This document shows, in pieces, positions 3,542-27,013 of a DNA stretch of 32,000 nucleotides. Numbering within the stretch: the stretch's first letter is position 1; every line of letters starts with the position of its first letter. This DNA comes from Candidatus Saccharimonadota bacterium (GTDB lineage: Bacteria; Patescibacteriota; Saccharimonadia; Saccharimonadales; Saccharimonadaceae): the NCBI GenBank assembly GCA_001029695.1, contig CP011211.1, positions 720,001-752,000 of the forward strand, given 5' to 3'. Made by a program: the position numbers and the translations under genes. A model generated the notes under the pieces. That model was not told the DNA's origin. It was given only the letters and a program-made list of their open reading frames with translations, and searched no databases.

Positions 3542-5188
3542 ATGGCTAAAAAAGTATTTTATGATGATGACGCTCGCGAGCGTGTGCTCGGTGGAGCAAA
3601 GGCGCTATATGACGCAGTAAAAGTAACCTACGGACCAAAAGGTCGAAATGTGGTGATCGCAAAGGGCTATGGTGGACCAACCGTAACGCACGATGGTGTC
3701 ACGGTCGCTGAATCAGTCGATCTACCGGAAAACGATGATGAGACACTCGGCTACAAGGTCGGTGCAGAACTTATTAAGCAGGCTGCGAGCAAGCTCAATA
3801 AGGTAGCAGGTGACGGCACAACGACAGTAACTGTCCTTACGTACAACATTCTCAAAGAAGCAAATCGTTTGATTGCGGCTGGCCACAATCCACAAGAGCT
3901 TCGCAAAGGTATCGAAGAGGCTGGCGCTGATGTCGTCAAGCAGCTCGATAAGCTTGCTGAGAGCATTGAAGGTAAAAAGGGACGCGTGGCAGAGGTTGCG
4001 ACAATCTCTGCGGGGAGTCGTGAGATCGGCGAGCTTATCGCTGGTGTGATCGAAAAAGTCGGCAAAGACGGCGTTGTTACCGTAGAGGCTGGGCAGGGAC
4101 TTGAGCTTGAGGCTGAAGTTGTTGAAGGTTTCAATCTTGACCGTGGCTGGGTGAGTCCATTCTTCGTGACTGACGCTGGTCGTCAAGAAGCAGTGTACGA
4201 AAAGCCTGCGGTAGTTATTACAGACAAGAAAGTTTCGAGCGTACAGGAATTCCTTCCGATTATCGAAAAGCTTGCCCAGGCAGGCAAAAAAGAAGTTGTG
4301 CTCATCGCCGACGAAGTAGAGGGTGAAGTATTGAGCATCTTGGTGCTCAACAAGCTCAAGGGTGTGCTAAATACTGTAGCAGTAAAAGCACCAGCATTTG
4401 GTGATCGCCGAAAAGAAATCCTTCAAGACATTGCTGTACTGACAGGTGCGACAGTGATTTCCGAAGATCAGGGTTTGACGTTTGAAAACGTAGGACTAGA
4501 GGTAATTGGAAACGCACGCAAGGTCATCGTCGGCAAAGACGACACCACAATTATCGAAGGTGCGGGCAAAGCAGCTGACGTTAAAGCACGTATCACGCAA
4601 ATTGTTGCACAAGCTGACAATGCTTCGAGTGAGTACGATAAAGAACAGTACGAAAAACGTGCTGCAGCGCTTAGTGGAAAAGTTGCTGTCATTAAGGTCG
4701 GTGGCGCTACCGAGACTGAGATCGATGAAAAGAAATTCCGTGTAGATGATGCTGTTGCGGCGACAAAAGCAGCGCTTGCAGAGGGAATTGTTGCCGGAGG
4801 TGGTGTGACGCTTGTAAACCTTTCTGCAACGATCAAAGCCGACGGCGCCGACAGTATTAGTGCTGGTCGTCAGATCCTCAAAAACGCACTTCGTGCGCCA
4901 TTCCTTCAGATTACCGCAAATGCCGGCCTCAATAGTGAAGCACTTCTTGCGCAAGTAGAAGCAGGCAAGATTGGCTTTGGTATCGATGTGAATGCGCCAG
5001 AAAAGGGGCTCGTTGACGTAAAGAAGGCTGGTGTTATCGATCCAGCACGCGTAACGAAAGAAGCTGTGCAAAACGCAGTTTCGATCGCATCAACTGCTGC
5101 GACAATGGGAGCGCTCGTTGTCGATATTCCAGAAAAAGAAGCTCCAGCTCCTGCTGGCGGCGGCATGCCTGGTGGCATGGGCTTCTAG
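3542..5188 (+). CDS. groEL: Chaperonin GroEL
   Basis: 548 aa with AGDGTTTVTVL, the GGG(V/A) motifs and a C-terminal GGM-type tail (GGGMPGGMGF). Confidence 0.97.
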   Translation: MAKKVFYDDDARERVLGGAKALYDAVKVTYGPKGRNVVIAKGYGGPTVTHDGVTVAESVDLPENDDETLGYKVGAELIKQAASKLNKVAGDGTTTVTVLTYNILKEANRLIAAGHNPQELRKGIEEAGADVVKQLDKLAESIEGKKGRVAEVATISAGSREIGELIAGVIEKVGKDGVVTVEAGQGLELEAEVVEGFNLDRGWVSPFFVTDAGRQEAVYEKPAVVITDKKVSSVQEFLPIIEKLAQAGKKEVVLIADEVEGEVLSILVLNKLKGVLNTVAVKAPAFGDRRKEILQDIAVLTGATVISEDQGLTFENVGLEVIGNARKVIVGKDDTTIIEGAGKAADVKARITQIVAQADNASSEYDKEQYEKRAAALSGKVAVIKVGGATETEIDEKKFRVDDAVAATKAALAEGIVAGGGVTLVNLSATIKADGADSISAGRQILKNALRAPFLQITANAGLNSEALLAQVEAGKIGFGIDVNAPEKGLVDVKKAGVIDPARVTKEAVQNAVSIASTAATMGALVVDIPEKEAPAPAGGGMPGGMGF

Positions 5189-5210
5189 AGGACGCTTACG
5201 TCTTTATAAA

Positions 5211-5240
5211 ATACCACCCTGCATGGGTGGTATTTTATTT
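5211..5240 (+). terminator. Intrinsic terminator after groEL
   Basis: ataccaccc-tgcat-gggtggtat followed by tttattt. Confidence 0.8.
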
Positions 5241-5267
5241 GACAATTTATGTTTCTATATGTATTAT
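5239..5267 (+). promoter_or_regulatory. sigma70-like promoter TTGACA-17-TATTAT
   Basis: The sequence reads TTGACAatttatgtttctatatgTATTAT, directly after the groEL terminator. Confidence 0.55.
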
Positions 5268-5308
5268 ATGTTTTGTTCTGACATCAAAAGTGTGAGGAAG
5301 TGGTAACG

Positions 5309-5692
5309 GTGAAAAACTATACAGCAGAGACAGTTCGTCCCGGCGCGGTACGTCCACGGGTGGGGCTTTTGTTCCCCACGCTCCAGCATTCAATAGTGTA
5401 TCTAGAAACGGTCAACGAGGAGGGTAGTGCTCTCATCATTGCGATTCGTGCCGCACCTGTTCGACAGGGCGAGATAACGATTGGCTGTCCAGTCATCATG
5501 TCGCAGGGAGAGGGCTACGCTCATCTACGACAGCTGACAGATTCACGCGGTCATGCTAGGCGCTTCGAGCCTATCGTCGAGCCGAATCCTTCGGGTATCC
5601 ATTTTATGCGGCCGCGAGAACCTGTGGAGTTTGTCGATCTTAATGACCTTTCGGTCAGATTTACCTATATCCCGCACACTATCCGACAGTGA
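5309..5692 (+). CDS. Hypothetical Arg-rich protein (about 127 aa)
   Basis: GTG 5309 lies 8 nt after the SD GAGGAAG; an alternative GTG at 5300 overlaps that SD. The gene is monocistronic between its own promoter and terminator. I recognise no family. Confidence 0.55.
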   Translation: MKNYTAETVRPGAVRPRVGLLFPTLQHSIVYLETVNEEGSALIIAIRAAPVRQGEITIGCPVIMSQGEGYAHLRQLTDSRGHARRFEPIVEPNPSGIHFMRPREPVEFVDLNDLSVRFTYIPHTIRQ

Positions 5693-16229: not shown

Positions 16230-16258
16230 TTGAAAACCATATATCTAGGGTCTATAGT
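16230..16258 (+). promoter_or_regulatory. nrd operon promoter TTGAAA-17-TATAGT
   Basis: The sequence reads TTGAAAaccatatatctagggtcTATAGT. The spacer is occupied by a candidate NrdR box. Confidence 0.5.
16236..16251 (+). promoter_or_regulatory. Candidate NrdR box (proximal pair, box A)
   Basis: ACCATATATCTAGGGT matches 11/16 positions of the NrdR-box consensus acaCwAtATaTwGtgt and is partly palindromic. Its centre is 32 bp from box B. Confidence 0.45.
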
Positions 16259-16426: not shown

Positions 16427-18823
16427 ATGAGCGAAATTCACGTGGTAAAACGCGACGGCACCCGCGAACCATTTGACGCCAACAAGATCAACCTGGCACT
16501 CGTCGAGGCGAGTGAGGGCTTGCCCGACCAGATTCAAAAAGTTGTTCAAGTTGCATCAGAGGTACGATTGACATTATTTGATGGAATCACGACGCAGCAG
16601 CTCGATGAATCAGTCATGCACGCTGCACTTCAAAACGTTAAAGACGACCCTGATTTCGATAAAATCGCCGCTCGTCTAATGCTCAAGAATGTTTATAAAA
16701 ACATCCTAGGACAATATAAAGATGCTGCTGAACTCAAAAAACTTCATGAGACAAAATTTGCAGACTACTTGAAGCAGGGTATTAAAGATGGCCTACTTGA
16801 TGAACGTATGAGCAGTAAGGTTTTTGATCTTAAAAAGCTTGCAAAGACAATCGACCCAACAAAAGACAATCTATCAAAATATCTAGGTGTCGTGACGAGC
16901 AAAAACCGCTATGGTCTTCGCAATCAAAGTGGCGATACGATCGAAGTGCCACAGTATACAAACATGCGAATTGCGATGGGACTTAGCTTTAACGAAGAAG
17001 ATCCAACGGCTGCAGCAATCGATTTTTACGAACACATGGCAAATCTTGACTACTCTCCTGGTGGATCGACTCGCATCAACGCTGGTGGTTCATTCCCTCA
17101 ACTATCAAACTGTTTCTTGATTGAGATTCAGGATGACATGGAATCGATCGCTAAAGGTGTTCGTGATGTGATGTGGATCGCTAAGGGTACGGGTGGTATT
17201 GGAATTAGCCTGAATAAACTTCGTGCCGCAGGTAGTCCTGTAAAGACGACTAATACGGAATCAACTGGACCTATCCCGTTCATGAAGATGATCGACACGG
17301 CGCTGTTTGCTGTATCTCGTAAGGGCAAAAAAGCTGGCGCAGCTGCTCTATATATGGAAAACTGGCACCTTAACTTTCCTCAATTCCTCGACCTAAAACA
17401 AAACTCTGGTGACCCATACCTTCGTACTCGACTTGCAAATACGGCAGTCTTTGTCAGCGATGAGTTTATGAAGCGTGTCGAAAAAGACCAGGACTGGTAC
17501 ATGTTTGACCCGGCAGAAGTGTCTGATCTTCCAGAGCTATACGGCGCTGAGTTTAGTAAGCGCTATGCTGAATATATAAAGATGGCAGAAAAGGGCGAGA
17601 TGCGTGATTTCTCAAAGATCAGTGCTCGCGAACAGTTCCGTCAGATCCTTACTGTACTCCAGGCGACAAGCCATCCATGGATCACATGGAAAGATACGAT
17701 CAATGTTCGTGCACTCAACAACAATACGAGCACGATTCATCTTTCAAATCTTTGTACAGAAATTACACTTCCTCAGGATAAAGATAATACCGCCGTCTGT
17801 AACCTCGTTAGTTTGAACCTTTCGGCGCATCTTATGGAAGATAAATCCTGGGACTGGGATCGCCTCAAGGCAAGTACTCGTAGTGCTATTCGTCAGCTTG
17901 ATAATCTTTGCGACATTACTAATACACCAATTCCTGAAGCGATGCATAGTAATACACAAAACCGTGCGCTTGGATTAGGTATTATGGGCTTTACGGATGT
18001 TATCGAAAAACTTGGCTTGAGCTATGAGTCTGAAGCAGCATATGATCTCATGGACCAATTGACGGAATTTATCAGCTACCATGCGATCGATCAATCAGCT
18101 GATCTTGCTAAAAAGCTCGGTAGCTACCCAACATTCAAGGGGAGCGGCTGGAGCAAAGGTATTCTTCCGATTGATACTGTCGATGAGCTTGCGACTGACC
18201 GTAAAGTAAAGGTCGACGTAACTCGAAAGACGCGCCTCGACTGGGATGTACTTCGAAAGAAGGTAAAGAAGGGTATGCGTAACGCAACGCTTATGGCGAT
18301 TGCTCCAACGGCAAATATTGCCCACGTAGTCGGGACAACCCCAGGGATTGATCCGCAGTTTGCTCAGATTTTCTCTCGTGCGACTCTAAATGGAAAGTTC
18401 CTTGAAATCAACGTCAATCTCGTTAACGACCTGAAGAAGCTTGGTATTTGGGATGATGTAAAAGACGACGTGCTTCGCCTACAGGGTGATGTACAGCAGA
18501 TCGATGCGATTCCGCAGCATATCAAGGATGTTTACAAGACAAGCTTCCAGTTGTCACCATTTGCCTTTATTGAAGTGGCAGCTCGTGCTCAGAAATGGGT
18601 TGATCAAGCGATTAGTCGCAATATGTACCTTGAGACCCGCGACATCGATGAGATGGTAAAAATCTATAGCGGTGCTTGGAAAAAAGGTCTAAAGACGACG
18701 TACTACCTGCACGTTAAACCACGTCACACTGCTGAACAAAGTACCGTCAAGGTAAACAAGGCAGAAGCGAGCGGTGGTCCGCGAAAAGCAGGCTTTGGCT
18801 TCGCAAAAAAGCAAACGGTATAG
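16427..18823 (+). CDS. nrdA: Ribonucleoside-diphosphate reductase alpha subunit (class I), without C-terminal cysteines
   Basis: 798 aa. N-terminal ATP-cone (VVKRDGTREPFD). Catalytic motifs LSNCFL, SNLCTEI and AVCNLVSLNL, plus the radical-transfer TTYYL. The last roughly 40 residues contain no Cys. Confidence 0.95.
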   Translation: MSEIHVVKRDGTREPFDANKINLALVEASEGLPDQIQKVVQVASEVRLTLFDGITTQQLDESVMHAALQNVKDDPDFDKIAARLMLKNVYKNILGQYKDAAELKKLHETKFADYLKQGIKDGLLDERMSSKVFDLKKLAKTIDPTKDNLSKYLGVVTSKNRYGLRNQSGDTIEVPQYTNMRIAMGLSFNEEDPTAAAIDFYEHMANLDYSPGGSTRINAGGSFPQLSNCFLIEIQDDMESIAKGVRDVMWIAKGTGGIGISLNKLRAAGSPVKTTNTESTGPIPFMKMIDTALFAVSRKGKKAGAAALYMENWHLNFPQFLDLKQNSGDPYLRTRLANTAVFVSDEFMKRVEKDQDWYMFDPAEVSDLPELYGAEFSKRYAEYIKMAEKGEMRDFSKISAREQFRQILTVLQATSHPWITWKDTINVRALNNNTSTIHLSNLCTEITLPQDKDNTAVCNLVSLNLSAHLMEDKSWDWDRLKASTRSAIRQLDNLCDITNTPIPEAMHSNTQNRALGLGIMGFTDVIEKLGLSYESEAAYDLMDQLTEFISYHAIDQSADLAKKLGSYPTFKGSGWSKGILPIDTVDELATDRKVKVDVTRKTRLDWDVLRKKVKKGMRNATLMAIAPTANIAHVVGTTPGIDPQFAQIFSRATLNGKFLEINVNLVNDLKKLGIWDDVKDDVLRLQGDVQQIDAIPQHIKDVYKTSFQLSPFAFIEVAARAQKWVDQAISRNMYLETRDIDEMVKIYSGAWKKGLKTTYYLHVKPRHTAEQSTVKVNKAEASGGPRKAGFGFAKKQTV

Positions 18824-18870
18824 CAAGAAAATTCACTGAAACATAATCAAAATAGGGGGAAAATAATACT

Positions 18871-19047
18871 ATGGCAAACGCATCAGCAATCATCAACGAT
18901 GACATGACACTTGAAGAAAAACTATCTGCTATTGATGCTGCAATGGCTGCAGCTCAGGCTACTGCAGACGATAATGCTCAGTCGAGTGGTGGTGCGGCAG
19001 CGCCTATTGATCCGCAAGACTTCTTGATGTGCGAAGGGTGTCAGTAG
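18871..19047 (+). CDS. Small ORF (58 aa) ending in a C-terminal CxxC (..DPQDFLMCEGCQ)
   Basis: Not in the ORF track because it is under 60 aa. ATG 18871 lies 10 nt after AGGGGGA. The translation is MANASAIINDDMTLEEKLSAIDAAMAAAQATADDNAQSSGGAAAPIDPQDFLMCEGCQ*. Its stop is 2 nt before the next ATG. Confidence 0.5.
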   Translation: MANASAIINDDMTLEEKLSAIDAAMAAAQATADDNAQSSGGAAAPIDPQDFLMCEGCQ

Positions 19048-19049
19048 CC

Positions 19050-19301
19050 ATGGGGGAGCAGTTAGCTATTTCGATCCCAGAGGTTGAAGAAAAACTTATG
19101 ACAAGAGATAGAGCGGTGCACATTAACGATAGTTTATTTTCAGCCGCTATGGCGCTTGAGGGAATTATCAGTAATGAAGCGCCCCTTGCGGAGAGCACTA
19201 TTGCTCGACTTGATGACGCACGTATTGCGATTGAAGAGGTGATGCAGACAGTCTATGAGGGTAGTGAGTTAGCAACTAACGAATTTGAGGAGGCTGTGTA
19301 A
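19050..19301 (+). CDS. Small acidic helical protein (83 aa), translationally coupled to nrdB
   Basis: ATG 19050. The ORF track's GTG 19029 would overlap the previous ORF. Its stop TAA overlaps the nrdB ATG (TAATG). It has no Cys and no family I recognise. Confidence 0.55.
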   Translation: MGEQLAISIPEVEEKLMTRDRAVHINDSLFSAAMALEGIISNEAPLAESTIARLDDARIAIEEVMQTVYEGSELATNEFEEAV

Positions 19302-20284
19302 TGGCAGGAATTTTAGGAACAGGAATACAAGACGGACTACTACTTAAGCCAGTTCACTATCAGTGGGCGATGGATCTGTATGATCAGGCAGTAGCAAATA
19401 CATGGTTTCCAAATGAAATTCAGCTTGGCCAAGACCTTGCTGACTGGAAGAAGATGAGTGACGAAGAGCGACATGCGTTGACGTTCCTCATGAGCTACTT
19501 CAATCCAAATGAACTACTCGTCAATAAGGCGCTTGCGTTTGGTGTTTACCCGTACGTCAATGCTGCAGAGTGCCACCTCTATCTTGCAAAACAGATGTGG
19601 GAAGAGGCTAACCACTGCATGAGTTTTGAGTATGTGCTTGAGACATTCCCGATTGATCGTGACCAAGCATACGCGGCTCACGTAGAGACGCCAAGTATGG
19701 CTCGAAAAGAAGCGTTTGAAACAAAGTTCATCAAACGCATGACCGAAGAGACGTTGGATATTACTTCGACTGAAGGTAAGAAAGATTTCATCCGAAATCT
19801 CATCGCGTACAATATTATCCTCGAAGGTATCTGGTTCTATAGTGGTTTCATGGTGGCACTTTCGTTCCGTCAGCGAAATCTTCTTCGTAACTTTGGTTCT
19901 TTGATGGACTGGGTTGTGCGTGACGAATCTCTCCATCTGAAGTTTGGTATTAATTTAATTTTGACAGTGCTTGAAGAAAACGAAGATCTTCAAACTGAAG
20001 AGTTTGCTGCTGAGATCAAGCAGATGATTCTCGATGGTGTTGAGATGGAAGAAGACTACAACAAAGACCTTCTACCAAATGGCATCCTCGGCCTTAATAG
20101 CGACTACATCAATCAGTATGTAAAGTATCTTGCTGATCGTCGTCTTGAGGAGCTCGGTTTTGAGGCGCACTACAAAGTATCAAACCCTGCAAAGTGGATG
20201 GCTGCAGCAAATGACACATTGCAGCTTGTGAATTTCTTTGAGAGTACCAATACTTCTTACGAAGTGAACGGACCAAAAAAATAA
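19301..20284 (+). CDS. nrdB: Ribonucleotide reductase beta subunit with class Ic hallmarks
   Basis: 327 aa. Metal ligands E71, E102-x-x-H105, E175 and E209-x-x-H212 have the same spacings as E. coli D84/E115/H118 and E204/E238/H241. Phe109 (TTT, 19625-19627) stands where the radical Tyr normally sits. Confidence 0.9.
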   Translation: MAGILGTGIQDGLLLKPVHYQWAMDLYDQAVANTWFPNEIQLGQDLADWKKMSDEERHALTFLMSYFNPNELLVNKALAFGVYPYVNAAECHLYLAKQMWEEANHCMSFEYVLETFPIDRDQAYAAHVETPSMARKEAFETKFIKRMTEETLDITSTEGKKDFIRNLIAYNIILEGIWFYSGFMVALSFRQRNLLRNFGSLMDWVVRDESLHLKFGINLILTVLEENEDLQTEEFAAEIKQMILDGVEMEEDYNKDLLPNGILGLNSDYINQYVKYLADRRLEELGFEAHYKVSNPAKWMAAANDTLQLVNFFESTNTSYEVNGPKK

Positions 20285-20302
20285 CAGAGTAAATATAAAA
20301 TG

Positions 20303-20340
20303 AATGGGCGGGTACACTAGCTGTTCGCCCATTTTTTATT
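20303..20340 (+). terminator. Intrinsic terminator after nrdB
   Basis: aatgggcg-(15 nt loop)-cgcccatt followed by ttttatt. Confidence 0.7.
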
Positions 20341-20352
20341 TGAAAGGTCTGC

Positions 20353-21273
20353 ATGAAAATTACTATCTGTGGTTCGATGAAGTTTGACGAAAAGATGTCC
20401 GAGGTGAAGGGGCAGCTTGAAGGTATGGGGTACGAGGTAGAGAAGCCGAATGTTGCTGAGGCTCACACGTATGGAGATGACCTTGATAAAAACGCAGATA
20501 TAAAACAGGGATTTATCAATGAACATTTTCGAAAGATCGACACATCCGATGCGATACTTGTTGTTAACGAAGATAAAAATGGAATTGAAAATTATATTGG
20601 TGGAAATACGCTGATCGAGATCGCCCACGCCTACACCCAAGGGATTGAAGTCTTTTTACTACATCCTGTGCCTAATGTCAGTTATGCGGACGAAATACGC
20701 GGTATGCATCCAATTTCTCTCAACGGCAATACTGCTGAGGTAGCAAGTTATTTCGAAAAACTGCCACTTGTACGTATTAGCAGTGAAAGCCCCGTCAAGC
20801 ATCTCGCGGTGAGTCGCGGACTACGCAAAGCTGGTATTCGAGTACGGACAGAAGGGGTGAAGGTTGAGTCTGGGGTTGATGAGCAGCCAATGAGCATTGA
20901 AGAAAGTTACGAAGGTGCGATGATTCGACACGAAAACCTCATAAAGACTGACAAGGTAGCTGACTATTTCGTTACGATTGAAAGTGGTCAACACCTTGCG
21001 CATAAAAATCATAGTCTCTTTGGTTGCGCAGTGATTATGATTGAGCGAGTAAACCAAGGGCGAAAGATAGGTATTGATCTCGATGTTGAGTTTCCACGAG
21101 AAATGCTCGACAAGGTGCCGTCGCAATACCCAGATCTTGGCATACTTGTTCAAAAAGAATACGGCTCAAAGCTGAAAGATCCGTATCCATTTTTTACGAA
21201 CAATCAACTAACACGAGCTAAGTTGCTCGAAGAAGCTGTGTACCGTGTGGCGGTGCAGTTGGAGGCAATATGA
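20353..21273 (+). CDS. Fusion protein: nucleoside 2-deoxyribosyltransferase/Rcl-like N-domain plus YjjX-type (NTPase I-T, DUF84) inosine/xanthosine triphosphatase C-domain
   Basis: The N-terminal MKITICGSMKF...DAILVVN...YIGGNTLIEIAHAYTQGIEVFLL matches the NDT/Rcl-like pattern. The C-terminal half aligns with E. coli YjjX as I recall it (VESGVDEQPMSIEESYEGAMIRHENL, YFVTIESG, LTRAKLLEEAV). Confidence 0.7.
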   Translation: MKITICGSMKFDEKMSEVKGQLEGMGYEVEKPNVAEAHTYGDDLDKNADIKQGFINEHFRKIDTSDAILVVNEDKNGIENYIGGNTLIEIAHAYTQGIEVFLLHPVPNVSYADEIRGMHPISLNGNTAEVASYFEKLPLVRISSESPVKHLAVSRGLRKAGIRVRTEGVKVESGVDEQPMSIEESYEGAMIRHENLIKTDKVADYFVTIESGQHLAHKNHSLFGCAVIMIERVNQGRKIGIDLDVEFPREMLDKVPSQYPDLGILVQKEYGSKLKDPYPFFTNNQLTRAKLLEEAVYRVAVQLEAI

Positions 21274-21782
21274 AAGAAATACTAGGCGATTACGAAGCGT
21301 TTGTCGCTGAGGCGAATAAACTTATTGATCAGTCGGGCATCGCCCGAAAAGAGATCATAATGTGTGACACACTCTGCTATCGAGTAGAGACAAATGAGCG
21401 TTACGATGAACTTAAGCAACTACTCGCTTCGTACGCACTTTCATCTCACGAAGAAGAGGTGAATCAGCGCATGATCACGGTCTATAGTCTCAGAGAGCCG
21501 TTAAATGTGCCGGGCTGGCAACGGCCAGTTCCGTATATAGAAGTGCCGCAGCCAAAGCCTGGCAGCCCATATCCTGAGGGGTTTGACCATGCGCAGTTTG
21601 TGACATTGCGAGGCTTGGGAGAGTTTCGTGCAGCGCACACTAGCTTGTCGTTTGATGAAAAAGGCCTCTCTCACACGTACAATCAGCTTGTAAAATTATC
21701 TGGAAAAGACGTGGCAATCAAATTTCACGATAAGCATATGGGCTCAGTTATTGAGCTTGAGCGAGCAGTTTCAGGACAATAA
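21270..21782 (+). CDS. YecM-like VOC (glyoxalase-fold) family protein
   Basis: 170 aa with DTLCYRVET...EVPQPKPGSPYPEGFDHAQFV, the pattern of the YecM/DUF991 family. Its start overlaps the upstream stop (ATGA). Confidence 0.6.
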   Translation: MKEILGDYEAFVAEANKLIDQSGIARKEIIMCDTLCYRVETNERYDELKQLLASYALSSHEEEVNQRMITVYSLREPLNVPGWQRPVPYIEVPQPKPGSPYPEGFDHAQFVTLRGLGEFRAAHTSLSFDEKGLSHTYNQLVKLSGKDVAIKFHDKHMGSVIELERAVSGQ

Positions 21783-21822: not shown

Positions 21823-23100
21823 ATGAAAACAAAACTCATCATCTTTGGCATCACCGGCGACCTGTCGACACGAAAACTTTTACCAGCACTTTCTCGTATC
21901 ATTGGGACGGGTGATTTTGATGATCTTTCAATTATTGGGGTGTCGCGACGACACGTTGAGCAGTACGAGCTACTCGGTGATCACCATGAACAACTAAATG
22001 GTACAACGGCAATGTATACAATGGATCTTGCAAATCCCGATGATTACCGAGGTCTCAAATCATACATCGACCTCAAAGAAGATGAACAGGCAATTTTTTA
22101 CCTCTCCGTACCTCCCGCGAGTAGCGCGCAGATCGTCGAGCTTCTTGGCCAAGCTGGTCTAAATAGCGATAATGTAAAACTTCTTCTTGAAAAGCCGTTT
22201 GGAGTTGACCTTGTGTCCGCTCAGGATATGATTGAGCATGTTGGTCGTCACTATGACGAGTCGCAGGTGTATCGGATTGATCACTATCTCGCTAAGGAGA
22301 TGGCTCAAAATATCCTTAGTTTTCGTGGTCGAAATGCATTGTTCGCACATGTATGGAATAATACTGCGATTGAACGCATCGATGTTATCGCACTTGAGTC
22401 GATTGATATTGAAGGTCGTGCTCATTTTTACGAACAAGCGGGTGCGCTGCGCGATGTTCTGCAGGGGCATTTAATTCAGCTTCTTGCTTTGACGCTTCTT
22501 GAAGTGCCTGAGGATCTTGACTGGAATAAGCTCCCAGATGCACGCCTAAAAGCGCTACAGTGTATTCAGCCAGCCGATATCACAAAGAGTCTCCGAGCGC
22601 AGTATAACGGCTATAGAGACGAAGTTCAGAACCCAGATAGTCAGGTTGAAACATTTGTGTCGGTCGCCCTAAGCTCGAATGACCCTAACTGGCAAGGTGT
22701 GCCCTTGACGTTAACAACTGGCAAGGCGCTGGAGCGCAAGGCTACTGAGGTACGTATTCACTTCAAGAAAACGAATGGTGCACAAAGCAATTATCTTATA
22801 TTTCGTATTCAACCGCATGAGGGCATTGAGATTGATCTTGTCACAAAAAAACCTGGTTATGACCAAGACTTCGAAACTCAGGAACTCACGTTTAACTATC
22901 CCGAAGAAACTAATTTACCTGACGCTTATGAGCAGGTTATTGTCGATGCGATTCGTTCAAAGAAGAGTCTTTTTGCTGAGGGTGGAGAGGTGGTGCGATC
23001 ATGGGAGATTGTAGCGCCACTTCAGGAAGCGTGGCTGCGAGGTGAATCACCGCTGCGTTTTTACGACAAAGGCGACAGCGCCAAGTCTCTCTTCGCATAA
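21823..23100 (+). CDS. zwf: Glucose-6-phosphate 1-dehydrogenase
   Basis: 425 aa with FGITGDLSTRKLLPAL (NADP site), EKPFG and RIDHYLAKE (catalytic signature). It is shorter than typical enzymes of this family. Confidence 0.9.
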   Translation: MKTKLIIFGITGDLSTRKLLPALSRIIGTGDFDDLSIIGVSRRHVEQYELLGDHHEQLNGTTAMYTMDLANPDDYRGLKSYIDLKEDEQAIFYLSVPPASSAQIVELLGQAGLNSDNVKLLLEKPFGVDLVSAQDMIEHVGRHYDESQVYRIDHYLAKEMAQNILSFRGRNALFAHVWNNTAIERIDVIALESIDIEGRAHFYEQAGALRDVLQGHLIQLLALTLLEVPEDLDWNKLPDARLKALQCIQPADITKSLRAQYNGYRDEVQNPDSQVETFVSVALSSNDPNWQGVPLTLTTGKALERKATEVRIHFKKTNGAQSNYLIFRIQPHEGIEIDLVTKKPGYDQDFETQELTFNYPEETNLPDAYEQVIVDAIRSKKSLFAEGGEVVRSWEIVAPLQEAWLRGESPLRFYDKGDSAKSLFA

Positions 23101-23110
23101 CATAAGGGTA

Positions 23111-23139
23111 TTGACTTTTTAGCAAGTTTGGTGTAGTAT
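23111..23139 (+). promoter_or_regulatory. sigma70-like promoter TTGACT-17-TAGTAT
   Basis: The sequence reads TTGACTttttagcaagtttggtgTAGTAT. Confidence 0.6.
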
Positions 23140-23181
23140 AAGCTTATACATAAAAACATAAGCGAATAGATATCCACCACT

Positions 23182-25329
23182 ATGGCAACAAAACACGTTA
23201 GTCAAGAATCACTCAAAAACAGCAACGTCAACCCAGTTTCAGGAGTTGACCGGTTGGGGCGTACTCCCGAAGAAGCTGAAGCCGACCAGCAAGAGATGCT
23301 AAAACGTCAGTATGAAGCAGGACGTCCGTTTAGTGACGCAGGTCTCGCCGTACAGCGTGCTCTTCAGGGGTATAGCGGACTTCATGATGGATGGGGTGCT
23401 AAGCCGCTTGTTGGTGACGAGGGCAGGCCTAATACTGTCGATGGCGTGTATGAGCTGGGTCGTTTCATGGCTCGTGCTCGACAGGAAGCTGAGTATGCTT
23501 CTCGTGACACAAAAGACTACGAGCAGGCATTTATCGGTCACATGGAAACAGTCGCCGATAAATACAATGGTCTTACTAATCTTGATGAAGATGCGCTTAA
23601 TGCTTCGAAGCCTGGTGAAAAAGATGATCCAGCACAAATACATATCGCAGCTGTTCTTGAAAAGCTAAATGCTGAACGTGACGAAAAGATTCAAGCAAAT
23701 GACAATATTGCCGCTAGAAAACTAGAAGACGATATTGCAGTGGTTGGTCAGTATGCCGAGATTGTTAAGTCTGACTACGCTGATAAACCAGTTGGCAATG
23801 AGGCGCATGACTTTGTGGTGCAGTCCGAACTTGCAGATCGTACACTTCCTGACAAATCAGTCGATGAAGAGGATCGCAAAAGCGCTGACGAAACGCTTGG
23901 TGATGTTCGTAAGGCGCTCGATAAAGCGTCTGAATACAATGCACTTATTGCTGGTGGGGCGAATATCCTTGCGAACTATTATCCATCGCAAAAACTCCTT
24001 GAGAAGTTTGCTGTAGGAAAGATGGTAAATGTGTCTGGAGTAGAAGACGGTGAAACGTCATCATGGCAAATTGCTGGACTTGCGCCTGGTGATAAATTCA
24101 CTGTTGAGCAAAAAGACACTGAAGGAAACTATGTTTATAAGGATCTTTCACTTCGTGAATTACGCGAGATGAATGAAAATGGTGGCACGGAACCTGTAGC
24201 AGCACCAGCTGTTGAGCCAGCCCCTGCGCCCGTTGAGTCAAGTCCAGAACAGAGTGCACCGGCACCTATTAGCCCCGAGATGAAGGCCGCATCAGAACGA
24301 CTCGAAGGTCTTCGCTCAAAGCTTGCCGAACTTAATGCTCGCCGAGAGAAACGTATTTTTGCTGGCGATGCATGGCGCGGTGAAGAGTCTGATATGACAA
24401 GCGTGAAAGCTCTTCAGGAAGACTACCAGAGCGCGTCACGAGAATTATTTATACTAGAAAACCAAGATGTACTTATGGACGGTTCTGTCGAAAAGATTGA
24501 AAAGATCCGGCTTATTGCCGAGCATACAGTCACTGAAGCAAAAGCGCTCGATACAGAGATTCTCGAAAACTATAACAACAAGAATACGCGCATAGGCAAG
24601 TTTATCAAATGGTACGGTAAACGTGGACTTGCAAGTAAGATCGCAATAGGTGGCGCGCTCTCGATTGGTGCTGGTCTTTTGACGGGTGGCGCTGGTACGG
24701 CACTTGTTTCAGGTACGCTGATGGCTGCTGGCCTTGAGGCGAAGCGCCGTGAGAAACGTGGTGCTGGCGATAGTATGGTTGAATTGACTGCCGAAGATTT
24801 GACGTATCAATACCAGGGCAACACTAATGAAGATGCTTTTCTCGGCATGCAGTCTAAGGCAAGGGATGCGTTCGATAATCGAATCGAGAATGAGCAACGT
24901 AAGCGGGGTGTTCGAGTGCTCGGAAGCTTTGTTGCTGGTGCGACGATTGGAACTGTATCACACTACATTGTCCCACATATGGATGGTATGTTCGGCGGAG
25001 ATAGTGCACATGCAGTAGCGCCTGACGGAAGTAGCGTACCTGCTGGTGCTGAGGCTGGAGCTGATTTTGGCTCAGCACATAGCGCTGTTTCAGAGACCGC
25101 GGCGAATTTTGGACCAAATAATATCTATGTAAACCCAGGTGATGGCTTCAATAACCTTTTCCAACAGATGAACATCCCACAAGACCAGTGGTCAAGTCTG
25201 ATTGATAAAGTCGGCCCAGAGCTTGTGCAGCATGGTGACGCATATGTTATGCCAGACGGTAGTTTCGGCGTCAGTAATGTTGGCCAGCTATCGCAACAAG
25301 CCTTTGAAACAATTCTGAAAAGTCGTTAA
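23182..25329 (+). CDS. Hypothetical large membrane protein (715 aa)
   Basis: Soluble N-terminal region of about 490 aa containing an AP-rich tract (EPVAAPAVEPAPAPVESSPEQSAPAPISPE) and coiled-coil-like segments. It has a Gly/Ala-rich TM hairpin (IAIGGALSIGAGLLTGGAGTALVSGTLMAAGL), a further TM (VLGSFVAGATIGTVSHYIV) and a C-terminal domain of about 110 aa. Confidence 0.7.
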   Translation: MATKHVSQESLKNSNVNPVSGVDRLGRTPEEAEADQQEMLKRQYEAGRPFSDAGLAVQRALQGYSGLHDGWGAKPLVGDEGRPNTVDGVYELGRFMARARQEAEYASRDTKDYEQAFIGHMETVADKYNGLTNLDEDALNASKPGEKDDPAQIHIAAVLEKLNAERDEKIQANDNIAARKLEDDIAVVGQYAEIVKSDYADKPVGNEAHDFVVQSELADRTLPDKSVDEEDRKSADETLGDVRKALDKASEYNALIAGGANILANYYPSQKLLEKFAVGKMVNVSGVEDGETSSWQIAGLAPGDKFTVEQKDTEGNYVYKDLSLRELREMNENGGTEPVAAPAVEPAPAPVESSPEQSAPAPISPEMKAASERLEGLRSKLAELNARREKRIFAGDAWRGEESDMTSVKALQEDYQSASRELFILENQDVLMDGSVEKIEKIRLIAEHTVTEAKALDTEILENYNNKNTRIGKFIKWYGKRGLASKIAIGGALSIGAGLLTGGAGTALVSGTLMAAGLEAKRREKRGAGDSMVELTAEDLTYQYQGNTNEDAFLGMQSKARDAFDNRIENEQRKRGVRVLGSFVAGATIGTVSHYIVPHMDGMFGGDSAHAVAPDGSSVPAGAEAGADFGSAHSAVSETAANFGPNNIYVNPGDGFNNLFQQMNIPQDQWSSLIDKVGPELVQHGDAYVMPDGSFGVSNVGQLSQQAFETILKSR

Positions 25330-25351
25330 GTAAATAGCGTCAAATAGACAA

Positions 25352-25386
25352 CACACTCCGCTAGATATGGCGGAGTGTGTTGGTTT
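25352..25386 (+). terminator. Intrinsic terminator (11-bp stem, short U-run)
   Basis: acacactccgc-tagatatg-gcggagtgtgt followed by ggtttg. Confidence 0.6.
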
Positions 25387-25388
25387 GA

Positions 25389-25397
25389 TGCTACAAT
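25389..25397 (+). promoter_or_regulatory. Extended -10 TGCTACAAT, 8 nt upstream of ATG 25406
   Basis: The sequence reads TGCTACAATgaaatcccATG. Confidence 0.4.
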
Positions 25398-25405
25398 GAA
25401 ATCCC

Positions 25406-27013
25406 ATGGGAGAGGGATATCTTATGGATCAAAAACAGAAATATATTTTTGTAACGGGAGGCGTACTTTCGGGGGTAGGAAAGGGCATCACGGCGGCAAG
25501 TATTGGCGCTGTCTTACAGGCAAAGGGCATTTCGGTGTCAATTCAAAAATGTGATCCGTATCTAAATGTAGATGCGGGTCTTTTAAATCCTGCGGAACAT
25601 GGCGAGTGTTTTGTGACAAAAGATGGAGCGGAGACTGATCTTGACCTTGGTCATTATGAGCGTTTTTTGGATATTGAGCTGACGCAGAAAAACGCTACAC
25701 TATCAGGTAAGCTGCTGTCGCAGTTGATTGCTGATGAGCGTGCCGGAAAATTTGGCGGTAAAACGGTCCAGTTGGTGCCGCATCTCACGGGTGCGATTCA
25801 GGATGCGATCGAGCTTGCAGCCGATGGCAGCCAGGTGCATATCGTTGAAATTGGCGGTACGGTAGGTGACTATGAGGGGTTGAGTTTTGTTGAGGCGATC
25901 CGCGAATTTTCAGGCCGTGTGGGTCGCGAGAACTGCATGTACGTCCATGTTGTGTACGTGCCATTTATTGGGACAAGTAAAGAATTTAAGACAAAACCTG
26001 CACAAAATGCACTGAATGAGCTTCGCGGATTTGGGATCACACCTGACTGTGTCGTCGTGCGAACTGACGACATCGCACCGGGGAATGTTGCTCGGAAGAT
26101 TAGCCAGTTTAGTGGCGTAGATGAAGATGCGGTCGTGTTGCTGCACAATGCAAAAACGGTCTTTCAGGTGCCATTGACTATCGCTGCGAGCGGTATCAAT
26201 GATGTACTTACGGAGTTTACGGGCAACTCGGAGACACCGAATCTTTCAAAATGGGAGACAATTGTTCGTGCGCAGGAGGCTGAGCATACTCAGACGGTGA
26301 AGATCGGGCTGGTCGCGAAATATATGGACAATGAAGATACCTATATATCTGTGCTTGAGGCACTTAAGAGTGCGGCATGGCAGGAAAAGGTGGGGCTGGA
26401 TATTGTCTGGATCAACGCTGAGACGGCTGATGATGAGGACTTCAAGGCAGTTGATGGCATCTTGGTACCTGGCGGCTTTGGTGAACGAGGTGTGAATGGA
26501 AAAATCGCTGCGGCCCACTATGCGCTTGCAGAAGATGCTCCTTATTTGGGTATTTGTCTGGGACTTCAGGTCGCGGTGGTGGCATCGGCACGTCGCGGCG
26601 GTCTTACGAATGCACATAGCACTGAGTTTGATGCGGGGACGGTGAGTGATGTGGTTTATATTATGGAAGGTCAGGCGGGCAAGGAGTCGACAGGCGGGAC
26701 ACTTCGACTTGGAGACTACGATGCGCGGCTTGCGCCTGGTTCACTTGCTGCAGACCTCTACGGCGCAGAATCAGTCACGGAGCGACACCGACATCGCTAT
26801 GAAGTAAATCAGAAGTTTACGCCAGAGATAACCGCAGGAGGACTTGTGATCAGCGGCACCTCACCGGACGGTGCATTGGTTGAGTTCGTTGAAGCTCCAG
26901 CAAGTCGATTCTTTGTCGCAACTCAAGCGCACCCAGAGCTAAAAAGCCGACCCGATCGAGCGCACCCATTGTTTGTCGGCCTCATCCAAGCGGCAAAGCA
27001 AGGCGCTCTTTAG
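25406..27013 (+). CDS. pyrG: CTP synthase
   Basis: YIFVTGGVLSGVGKGI, the GATase domain LGICLGLQ and ...HPE. The start is ambiguous: ATG 25406 would be leaderless, while ATG 25424 (MDQKQKYIFVTGG) is preceded by GGGAGAGGG. Confidence 0.95.
   Translation: MGEGYLMDQKQKYIFVTGGVLSGVGKGITAASIGAVLQAKGISVSIQKCDPYLNVDAGLLNPAEHGECFVTKDGAETDLDLGHYERFLDIELTQKNATLSGKLLSQLIADERAGKFGGKTVQLVPHLTGAIQDAIELAADGSQVHIVEIGGTVGDYEGLSFVEAIREFSGRVGRENCMYVHVVYVPFIGTSKEFKTKPAQNALNELRGFGITPDCVVVRTDDIAPGNVARKISQFSGVDEDAVVLLHNAKTVFQVPLTIAASGINDVLTEFTGNSETPNLSKWETIVRAQEAEHTQTVKIGLVAKYMDNEDTYISVLEALKSAAWQEKVGLDIVWINAETADDEDFKAVDGILVPGGFGERGVNGKIAAAHYALAEDAPYLGICLGLQVAVVASARRGGLTNAHSTEFDAGTVSDVVYIMEGQAGKESTGGTLRLGDYDARLAPGSLAADLYGAESVTERHRHRYEVNQKFTPEITAGGLVISGTSPDGALVEFVEAPASRFFVATQAHPELKSRPDRAHPLFVGLIQAAKQGAL

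Follow-up and report, generated by a model that had tools for sequence, protein, structure and literature searches.

A conserved 58-residue microprotein encoded beside nrdA is probably a detached redox tail of class I ribonucleotide reductase in Saccharibacteria

Ribonucleotide reductase (RNR) provides the sole de novo source of DNA precursors, and re-reduction of its active site is usually taken to need a tail tethered to the catalytic subunit. We analyzed a 32,000-nucleotide (nt) stretch of a Candidatus Saccharimonadota bacterium genome (GenBank contig CP011211.1, positions 720,001 to 752,000; hereafter the window, with coordinates counted from its first base). Here the catalytic subunit NrdA of a class I RNR ends without cysteines, and a separate open reading frame (ORF) just downstream encodes a peptide of 58 amino acids (aa) that closes with a CxxC pair. 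Comparison across related loci makes it probable, with good confidence, that this peptide is a trans-acting redox tail of the enzyme, its CxxC reducing the disulfide of the NrdA active site. The peptide occurs exactly where NrdA lost its cysteines; its gene is linked to nrdA and nrdB and, in other lineages, to redoxin genes. Its translation and binding, the role of its N-terminal helix, and its electron-relay chemistry are what we infer from these patterns.

The NrdA of the window is encoded at positions 16427 to 18823 (798 aa, TAG stop; forward strand, as are all operon features of the window given below). It comprises ATP-cone, all-alpha, and barrel domains (Pfam PF03477, PF00317, and PF02867) and scores above the curated cutoff of the NCBIfam class I model NF005101; the locus also has an nrdB gene. 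As the initial annotation of this DNA had stated, the catalytic cysteines and the tyrosine dyad are kept (LSNCFL, SNLCTEI, AVCNL, and TTYYL) and the end of the protein is free of cysteine: none occurs in the 42 residues from TTYY to the C terminus (..TTYYLHVKPRH..GPRKAGFGFAKKQTV). The NF005101 profile aligned over its positions 2 to 790 of 822, with the final ∼32 positions absent. The closest solved structure, 5IM3, aligned over chain residues 148 to 928 of 963.

The 58-aa ORF is a conserved gene under purifying selection. Its ATG lies at 18871 and its stop codon at 19045 to 19047, following a 47-nt gap after nrdA (18824 to 18870) in which a Shine-Dalgarno-like AGGGGGA can be read off the sequence at 18855 to 18861, 9 nt before the ATG. 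The product, MANASAIINDDMTLEEKLSAIDAAMAAAQATADDNAQSSGGAAAPIDPQDFLMCEGCQ, ends in ...DPQDFLMCEGCQ. The spacing, the ribosome-binding site, and the CxxC near the C terminus all agree with the initial reading of this locus, which had also called the ORF unannotated. On that point NCBI does list it: under Ca. Saccharibacteria bacterium GW2011_GWC2_44... it is entered as UW38_C0001G0814, a hypothetical protein. No Pfam or NCBIfam family matched the peptide, even at an E value of ≤1. Homologues formed 263 clusters of 55 to 60 aa, all unnamed or annotated as hypothetical. A profile hidden Markov model (HMM) search of 1.84 billion representative proteins returned 140 peptide clusters at 50% identity, nearly all of 32 to 144 aa, and otherwise three unrelated repetitive proteins. 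In copies of the gene from related loci the start codon was ATG in 62 of 62, with G-rich Shine-Dalgarno-type runs upstream; a separate scan of loci in which the peptide directly follows nrdA scored a Shine-Dalgarno-like motif in 60 of 62. Differences between copies were concentrated at the third codon position (26911/18652/58212 for the first, second, and third positions), and the ratio of nonsynonymous to synonymous differences (pN/pS) was 0.31 overall.

The distribution of the gene tracks the state of the NrdA C terminus. A cysteine-free NrdA is encoded at 74 loci, and in 72 of them the peptide gene lies downstream in the same orientation; in the two exceptions the contig ends 65 and 192 nt past nrdA, and at the edge of one of these the peptide's first 19 residues can be seen. 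Seven of the loci fetched for comparison, more distant ones (L067 to L070, L072, L073, and L075), encode a single, longer NrdA of 816 to 909 aa, 56 to 59% identical to that of the window, which terminates in ...CPIDPAERAQCDSCQ; the peptide was found in none of the seven (0/7). The initial annotation had proposed to look for relatives with a single NrdA whose C terminus aligns to the end of the peptide, as well as for conservation of the split, and both were found, in 7 loci and in 72 of 74, respectively. Its central claim, that the ORF is the detached cysteine tail of NrdA, gains support from this distribution and from the homology to fused tails described below.

In neighbor-joining trees, the split-type NrdAs grouped together as one clade (99/100 bootstrap), with the fused clade as its sister. 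Most members of the peptide family have two cysteines and basal members have three: the three-cysteine peptides (L081 to L085) branch near the base of the split clade, and the third cysteine is also found in fused tails. On the simplest history, the linker underwent a single fission past a conserved GFGF motif, after which the helix would have been acquired and, later, the first cysteine lost. One Saccharibacterial subclade (L043, L045, L051, L053, L058, and L078) carries the peptide gene 1.5 to 2.7 kilobases (kb) downstream, behind nrdB and on the same strand, where it also follows a few nucleotide-metabolism-like genes. In the two of these loci that were inspected, L078 and L053, the gene comes after a DUF84-nucleoside triphosphatase (NTPase)-like gene together with further short ORFs that have no assignment; L053 has a divergent copy of greater length (71 aa, ..VVGDPADAFACEGCQ).

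Since the window comes from a metagenome-assembled genome, and the ORF sits just 3′ of nrdA in another frame, the split might be taken for an artifact or a recent pseudogenizing lesion (a frameshift, a nonsense mutation, or an assembly error), with the 58-aa ORF as a remnant. The comparative data refute this reading, which we regard as having next to no probability. The same arrangement is present in 72 independent assemblies. Across loci the gap between nrdA and the peptide gene ranges from 11 to 181 nt and puts the two genes in all three relative frames equally (20/22/20), which rules out a conserved frameshift, read-through, and assembly error. In the window, a TAA at 18844 to 18846 precedes the ATG in the peptide frame, which is not that of nrdA, so that the initial argument against a simple frameshift holds. 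Nearly every copy has its own ATG and Shine-Dalgarno motif; the peptide gene is under purifying selection, encodes a conserved helix without counterpart in fused tails, and in the subclade just described has been relocated behind nrdB.

Sequence comparison indicates that the tail module of the peptide is homologous to the extreme C terminus of fused NrdA. The fused C termini ..ACPLDPMERLQCESCQ, ..VCPIDPAERAQCDSCQ, and ..NPADANICDDCQ align end to end with the ..APIDPQDFLMCEGCQ of the peptide. A search of the six-frame segments of all loci (17,591) with the peptide-family HMM matched the exact C terminus in all seven fused NrdAs (7/7) and no split NrdA (0); beyond the peptides and these seven, it gave one out-of-frame match, in L023, which was inspected and dismissed as due to chance. 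Most fused tails aligned to HMM positions 40 to 58, with a weak extension from position 22 in L070 and L073; apart from that extension, the family HMM detected no helix module inside fused tails. The stand-alone peptide P0258, which kept the third cysteine, ends in 16 residues (ACPIDPAERAQCEGCQ) of which 13 are identical to the NrdA end of L070 and L073, against 7/16 for the best unrelated C terminus. For the window peptide, 9 of 16 residues were identical to fused NrdA ends, the background maximum being 6/16. The pattern C[ED]xCQ is the usual end in this NrdA subfamily, as in Acinetobacter (..CSIDNPDCEACQ) and phage nickie (..FQCEACQ).

The peptide can be divided into a conserved amphipathic helix, the CxxC tail, and a variable linker between them. 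The N-terminal module (residues 1 to 29, positions 18871 to 18957; pN/pS of 0.27) has the pattern NAxxIIxDDMTLEEKLxAIDxAMxxAQ of an acidic amphipathic helix, with heptad positions L14, L18, I21, M25, and A28 and invariant residues N3, A4, M12, L14, K17, L18, A20, I21, A24, M25, A28, and Q29. The linker (residues 30 to 42, positions 18958 to 18996) is of low complexity, with poorly conserved columns and indels, and has the highest pN/pS of the modules (0.52). The tail module AAPIDPQDFLMCEGCQ (residues 43 to 58, positions 18997 to 19044; pN/pS of 0.22) carries the CxxC pair within the motif APxDPxDxxMCxGCQ, in which P45, D47, P48, C54, and C57 are invariant. Cys54 (19030 to 19032) and Cys57 (19039 to 19041), in the end ..MCEGCQ, did not vary in 120 homologues among the matches listed and are kept in nearly every intact member. 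AlphaFold2, run on the family alignment, predicted a helix at residues 14 to 38 (predicted local distance difference test [pLDDT] score, ∼80), and this N-terminal helix is a putative docking or assembly element. The final 18 residues scored 52 to 67 with only a one-turn helix, a low confidence that is compatible with disorder and no proof of it.

A peptide so small, acidic, and possibly disordered in part could also be a regulator, a tail mimic that gates the NrdA tail path or active-site entrance in the manner of yeast Sml1 and other small RNR inhibitors that are intrinsically disordered, while reduction proceeds via a small molecule or a redoxin. Small-molecule reductants have been suggested for some RNRs without C-terminal cysteines (bioRxiv 10.1101/2022.04.23.489257), and the phage copies without a nearby RNR, described below, would suit a host-manipulating factor. 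However, the invariance of both cysteines and the constraint on the tail motif, the strongest of the three modules, suit chemistry over mere occupancy. Presence exactly where NrdA lost its cysteine pair is expected of a replacement, not of an added inhibitor, and the glutaredoxin-family proteins encoded next to it or fused with it point toward a thiol relay. We therefore consider a regulatory peptide quite improbable.

As a redox tail in trans, the peptide would act as follows. A free-standing microprotein would have arisen when, long ago, the gene was broken in the linker that joins the catalytic body to the CxxC tail. Each turnover of a class I RNR would leave a disulfide in the NrdA active site; the flexible C-terminal ..DPxDxxMCxGCQ of the peptide would enter this site and reduce the disulfide by thiol-disulfide exchange, and the oxidized peptide would be re-reduced by thioredoxin or a glutaredoxin-type redoxin. 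Of two chemical reductants used with RNR, TCEP reportedly works by way of cysteines at the C terminus, and direct reduction of the active site is possible with DTT (PMC4078304; PMC5704485). The acidic amphipathic helix, which is missing in fused tails, may dock the peptide to the RNR complex or to a redoxin and so replace the tether.

Genes for thiol-disulfide oxidoreductases accompany the peptide in several lineages. In L081 and L082, thioredoxin and thioredoxin reductase genes adjoin nrdA-peptide-nrdB in divergent orientation; among the Saccharibacterial loci searched for redoxin motifs, one was nearby only in these two. Scanning IMG/VR with the peptide alignment yielded 36 viral contigs (L086 to L121) in which the peptide is present with no nrdA or nrdB within 5 kb. 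Its contexts there are phage replication modules, with a replication initiator, RusA, a DNA polymerase exonuclease subunit, an endolysin, and an array of 22 transfer RNA (tRNA) genes. In 7 of these contigs (L106, L108, L110, L111, L097, L099, and L113) a glutaredoxin-family gene of 73 to 75 aa lies directly 3′ of the peptide gene; glutaredoxin-family neighbors in loci other than the window had E values of ∼1e-12. Within L106 this arrangement is found at 4998 to 5171 and 5361 to 5588, and the 22-tRNA array lies just upstream. L112 has two tandem peptide paralogues, at 5001 to 5165 and 5153 to 5305, the second of them divergent (MERLTNDEINERPATIEERLLIGSKAIEQYIIPIDPMDELQCDSCQ). In GenBank phages no match to the 58-aa peptide was found. 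Among viral contigs, close patterns retrieved no relative of the window NrdA, and those NrdAs of deposited phages that come closest share <40% identity and carry fused tails.

Other loci carry detached tails of other forms. A scan with the NrdA alignment recovered L125 and L127, in which NrdA is 38% identical to that of the window, is cysteine-free, and ends in ..YYLRSKAATSAENSTE. Between nrdA and nrdB (∼5342 to 5635), these loci encode a 97-aa protein made of a glutaredoxin domain and an acidic extension ending in ..EYATCESCEG, a glutaredoxin-tail fusion that looks like an independent detached tail. In three actinophage-like contigs (L122 to L124; a WhiB-family gene is present in L123, and similar sequences are present in L124), an ORF of only 28 to 35 aa lies upstream of a cysteine-free nrdA and encodes little beyond the tail, for example MSNLFESSVDVVDGIVCPVDPMDLLNCESCQ. 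These mini-tail ORFs (..VCPVDPMDLLNCESCQ) lie at ∼1890 to 1999 in L122, ∼1923 to 2018 in L123, and ∼2820 to 2906 in L124. The NrdA of these contigs is 61 to 64% identical to that of the window and groups with the split clade at 100/100. Between mini-tail and nrdA, L123 has a 315-aa ORF with a LAGLIDADG-like motif and no Pfam match; the nrdA of L124 bears an intein-like insertion. At least two origins of detached tails were seen, the helix-tail and mini-tail forms being one and the glutaredoxin-tail fusion another. Judged from sequence, the tail has become detached more than once and keeps the company of thiol-disulfide oxidoreductases.

Several observations weigh against the peptide being a docked redox tail of NrdA. 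Its homology to fused tails spans only 16 to 19 residues, and the chance match in L023 scored level with some fused tails. No NrdA was among the matches at an E value of ≤0.001 when 1.84 billion proteins were searched with the HMM, because a tail of 16 residues carries too few bits; the homology was shown on the fetched loci, not through that search. No thioredoxin- or glutaredoxin-type active-site motif was found in reading-frame segments of 70 to 180 aa in the 32-kb window. The viral peptides without a nearby RNR fit a trans-acting factor and leave room for a broader or different role. In split-type NrdAs we saw neither an insertion specific to the clade nor a docking element, the differences amounting to indels of 1 and 3 residues plus 19 fixed, scattered substitutions, and the mini-tails have no helix at all, so that docking may not be essential. 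That the helix compensates for the lost tether by docking is most likely, and it is also the weakest step of the mechanism for these last two reasons.

The same observations bear on whether the peptide is a freely diffusing, nondocking mini-redoxin shared by several enzymes, its helix serving homo-oligomerization or redoxin recognition. Phage copies far from any RNR gene, the existence of helix-less mini-tails, and the lack of a docking insertion in NrdA would all agree with such a protein. In cellular genomes, however, linkage to nrdAB is strict, the peptide derives from an RNR-specific tail, and the helix matches the tail in conservation, which speaks for a specific partner; we consider a shared mini-redoxin unlikely. 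A bolder version of the redox-tail reading can be offered only tentatively, since taken jointly its parts are considerably less likely than the core proposal. The tail microprotein would be an obligatory, separately dosed third subunit whose helix docks to the α2 dimer and whose abundance sets the turnover rate. The copies in Saccharibacteria phages, often paired with a glutaredoxin-family gene and without an RNR gene nearby, would plug into the tail-less NrdA of the host and boost the supply of deoxynucleoside triphosphates in infection. Detached tails would then be recurrent and exchangeable.

In the window, the peptide gene is embedded between the two RNR subunit genes. As initially described, its stop lies 2 nt before the next ORF, which in turn overlaps nrdB: an acidic 83-aa ORF begins with an ATG 2 nt after the peptide stop (19050 to 19301), and its TAA overlaps the ATG of nrdB at 19301. 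This 83-aa ORF matched no family in Pfam and NCBIfam scans and had no tblastn match in any other fetched locus. In the closest relatives it is missing, with a gap of 58 to 64 nt in its place (64 nt in L001), and other relatives have unrelated ORFs of 40 to 144 aa in this hypervariable slot before nrdB. Its part in the RNR system is doubtful. A few slot ORFs (those of the window, L005, L017, L018, L052, and L106) have in common only a M(A/G)GEQL/GEHL-like start. The genes nrdA, peptide, 83-aa ORF, and nrdB look like one operon because a promoter-like site precedes nrdA and the only forward-strand terminator-like hairpin in the scanned region follows nrdB. The former (TTGAAA-17-TATAGT at 16230 to 16258; 10/12 matches in a consensus scan) is a consensus match only, and shuffled sequence gave more such sites than the region; the latter, a hairpin with a T-run found by a terminator scan, lies at 20302 to 20334.

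The nrdB gene (19301 to 20284) encodes the radical-generating subunit, 327 aa long and class Ic-like (Pfam PF00268 and NCBIfam NF007186). Its best solved match is 1SYY, the R2 protein of Chlamydia trachomatis. Both have Phe at the radical-Tyr position (HCMSF versus HTHTF) and Glu at the first metal ligand (NPNE versus STAE), which suggests a Mn/Fe-type cofactor without a tyrosyl radical. The usual position of the peptide gene between nrdA and nrdB, together with this class Ic-like NrdB, raises the alternative that the peptide serves NrdB, in the manner of YfaE or NrdI of other nrd operons, by delivering electrons or metal through its CxxC in cofactor assembly or maintenance. In L081 to L083 an Nramp-family transporter gene follows nrdB, and one may speculate that it would fit metal supply for a class Ic-like NrdB. 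Yet the tail module is homologous to the C terminus of NrdA in fused relatives, and these relatives, whose downstream NrdB is of the same type, lack the peptide; two cysteines are insufficient for a YfaE-type cluster, and the peptide matches no flavodoxin or ferredoxin family. A helper of NrdB is accordingly very unlikely.

Many relatives' NrdBs (L003 to L006, L008, L013, L059, L061, L063, and L080) have a conserved C-terminal extension, ..GQSPSADRDENDPDNSILKK, after a ..TSYEVN motif; that of the window has none and terminates in ..YEVNGPKK. Downstream of the operon, a cluster for nucleotide and redox metabolism occupies 20353 to 21782 and 21823 to 27013. One of its proteins, of 306 aa, has a DUF84 NTPase domain (PF01931) at the C terminus and an N-terminal part of ∼140 aa without assignment; the cluster further includes a YecM-family protein, glucose-6-phosphate dehydrogenase, a 715-aa ORF that is likewise unassigned, and CTP synthase. 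An Rfam scan of the window found a tRNA and nothing else.

If the peptide is a redox tail in trans, some RNR tails may be sitting unannotated in small ORFs near their enzymes. The tether would be dispensable, and by adding the tail in trans one could cleanly study its entry, its recognition by redoxins, and rate limitation in the split enzyme. The genomes of Saccharibacteria are small and their lifestyles epibiotic; in these bacteria, and on viral contigs, the tail would be an independently inherited and possibly independently regulated module. It would also be a worked example of a functional bacterial microprotein annotated merely as hypothetical. The surprise for specialists would be a putatively disordered tail as a free microprotein that also travels on viral contigs.

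Separately encoded reductive modules were known so far only from class II RNR. The initial annotation had noted no described case of a tail in trans, which stands for class I in the literature searched, but not for class II, in which NrdJa/NrdJb is known (PMC4520616, PMC5704485). We found no paper on a separately encoded class I tail, in a search that does not span all journals, and nothing relevant on RNR in Saccharibacteria or Patescibacteria. Reviews of RNR extensions discuss the tails of class I solely as belonging to the alpha chain, and leave class II sequences without C-terminal cysteines unexplained unless split (PMC9669993; bioRxiv 10.1101/2022.04.23.489257). In the split class II RNR of Pseudomonas aeruginosa, NrdJb is the separately encoded C-terminal cysteine-rich domain; it serves NrdJa in thiol-disulfide exchange and is indispensable in vivo (Crona et al. 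2015, PMC4520616), a precedent for such a module working in trans. Electron transfer between subunits has been described (Loderer et al. 2017, PMC5704485), and split NrdJ in P. aeruginosa and a few related gammaproteobacteria. The likeness is that a reductive, cysteine-bearing C-terminal module is encoded by a separate, adjacent gene while the catalytic chain keeps the other functions. The systems differ in class, theirs being class II and dependent on B12 (adenosylcobalamin) and the present one class I with NrdB, and in lineage, since the split described here is in Saccharibacteria and metagenomic viral contigs. They differ also in the module itself: NrdJb is a folded cysteine-rich domain, with six cysteines and zinc in the related S. 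nassauensis enzyme, whereas the peptide has 58 aa, a helix, and a two-cysteine tail that may be disordered.

Compared with the canonical class I NrdA tail, for which a CXXC consensus has been noted (PMC9669993) and of which C754/C759 of Escherichia coli are an example, the peptide likewise has a C-terminal cysteine pair one residue from the terminus and is homologous to the fused tails of a sister lineage; unlike that tail, it is not covalently attached to NrdA and has an added N-terminal helix. In Aeromonas phage Aeh1, a class I nrdA is split, at the insertion of a mobile endonuclease, into NrdA-a and NrdA-b, which reassemble noncovalently (Crona et al. 2010, PMC3045599). The new terminal sequences at that split are interaction domains, a possible analogy for the peptide helix. 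Here, in contrast, only the tail is detached, at the linker, and the gap in the window holds no endonuclease gene. YfaE has four cysteines, a 2Fe-2S cluster, and a ferredoxin fold, whereas the peptide has two cysteines and no family match. Fusion of a redoxin to an RNR subunit is known from Facklamia ignava, in which a glutaredoxin domain is joined to NrdB (PMC6187632). NrdH and glutaredoxin-like redoxins resemble the peptide as small CxxC proteins encoded with RNR genes that deliver electrons to NrdA or NrdE. However, the peptide has neither a thioredoxin fold nor a match to PF00462 or PF00085, and its CxxC lies at the extreme C terminus; it would correspond to the substrate of these redoxins, not to a redoxin.

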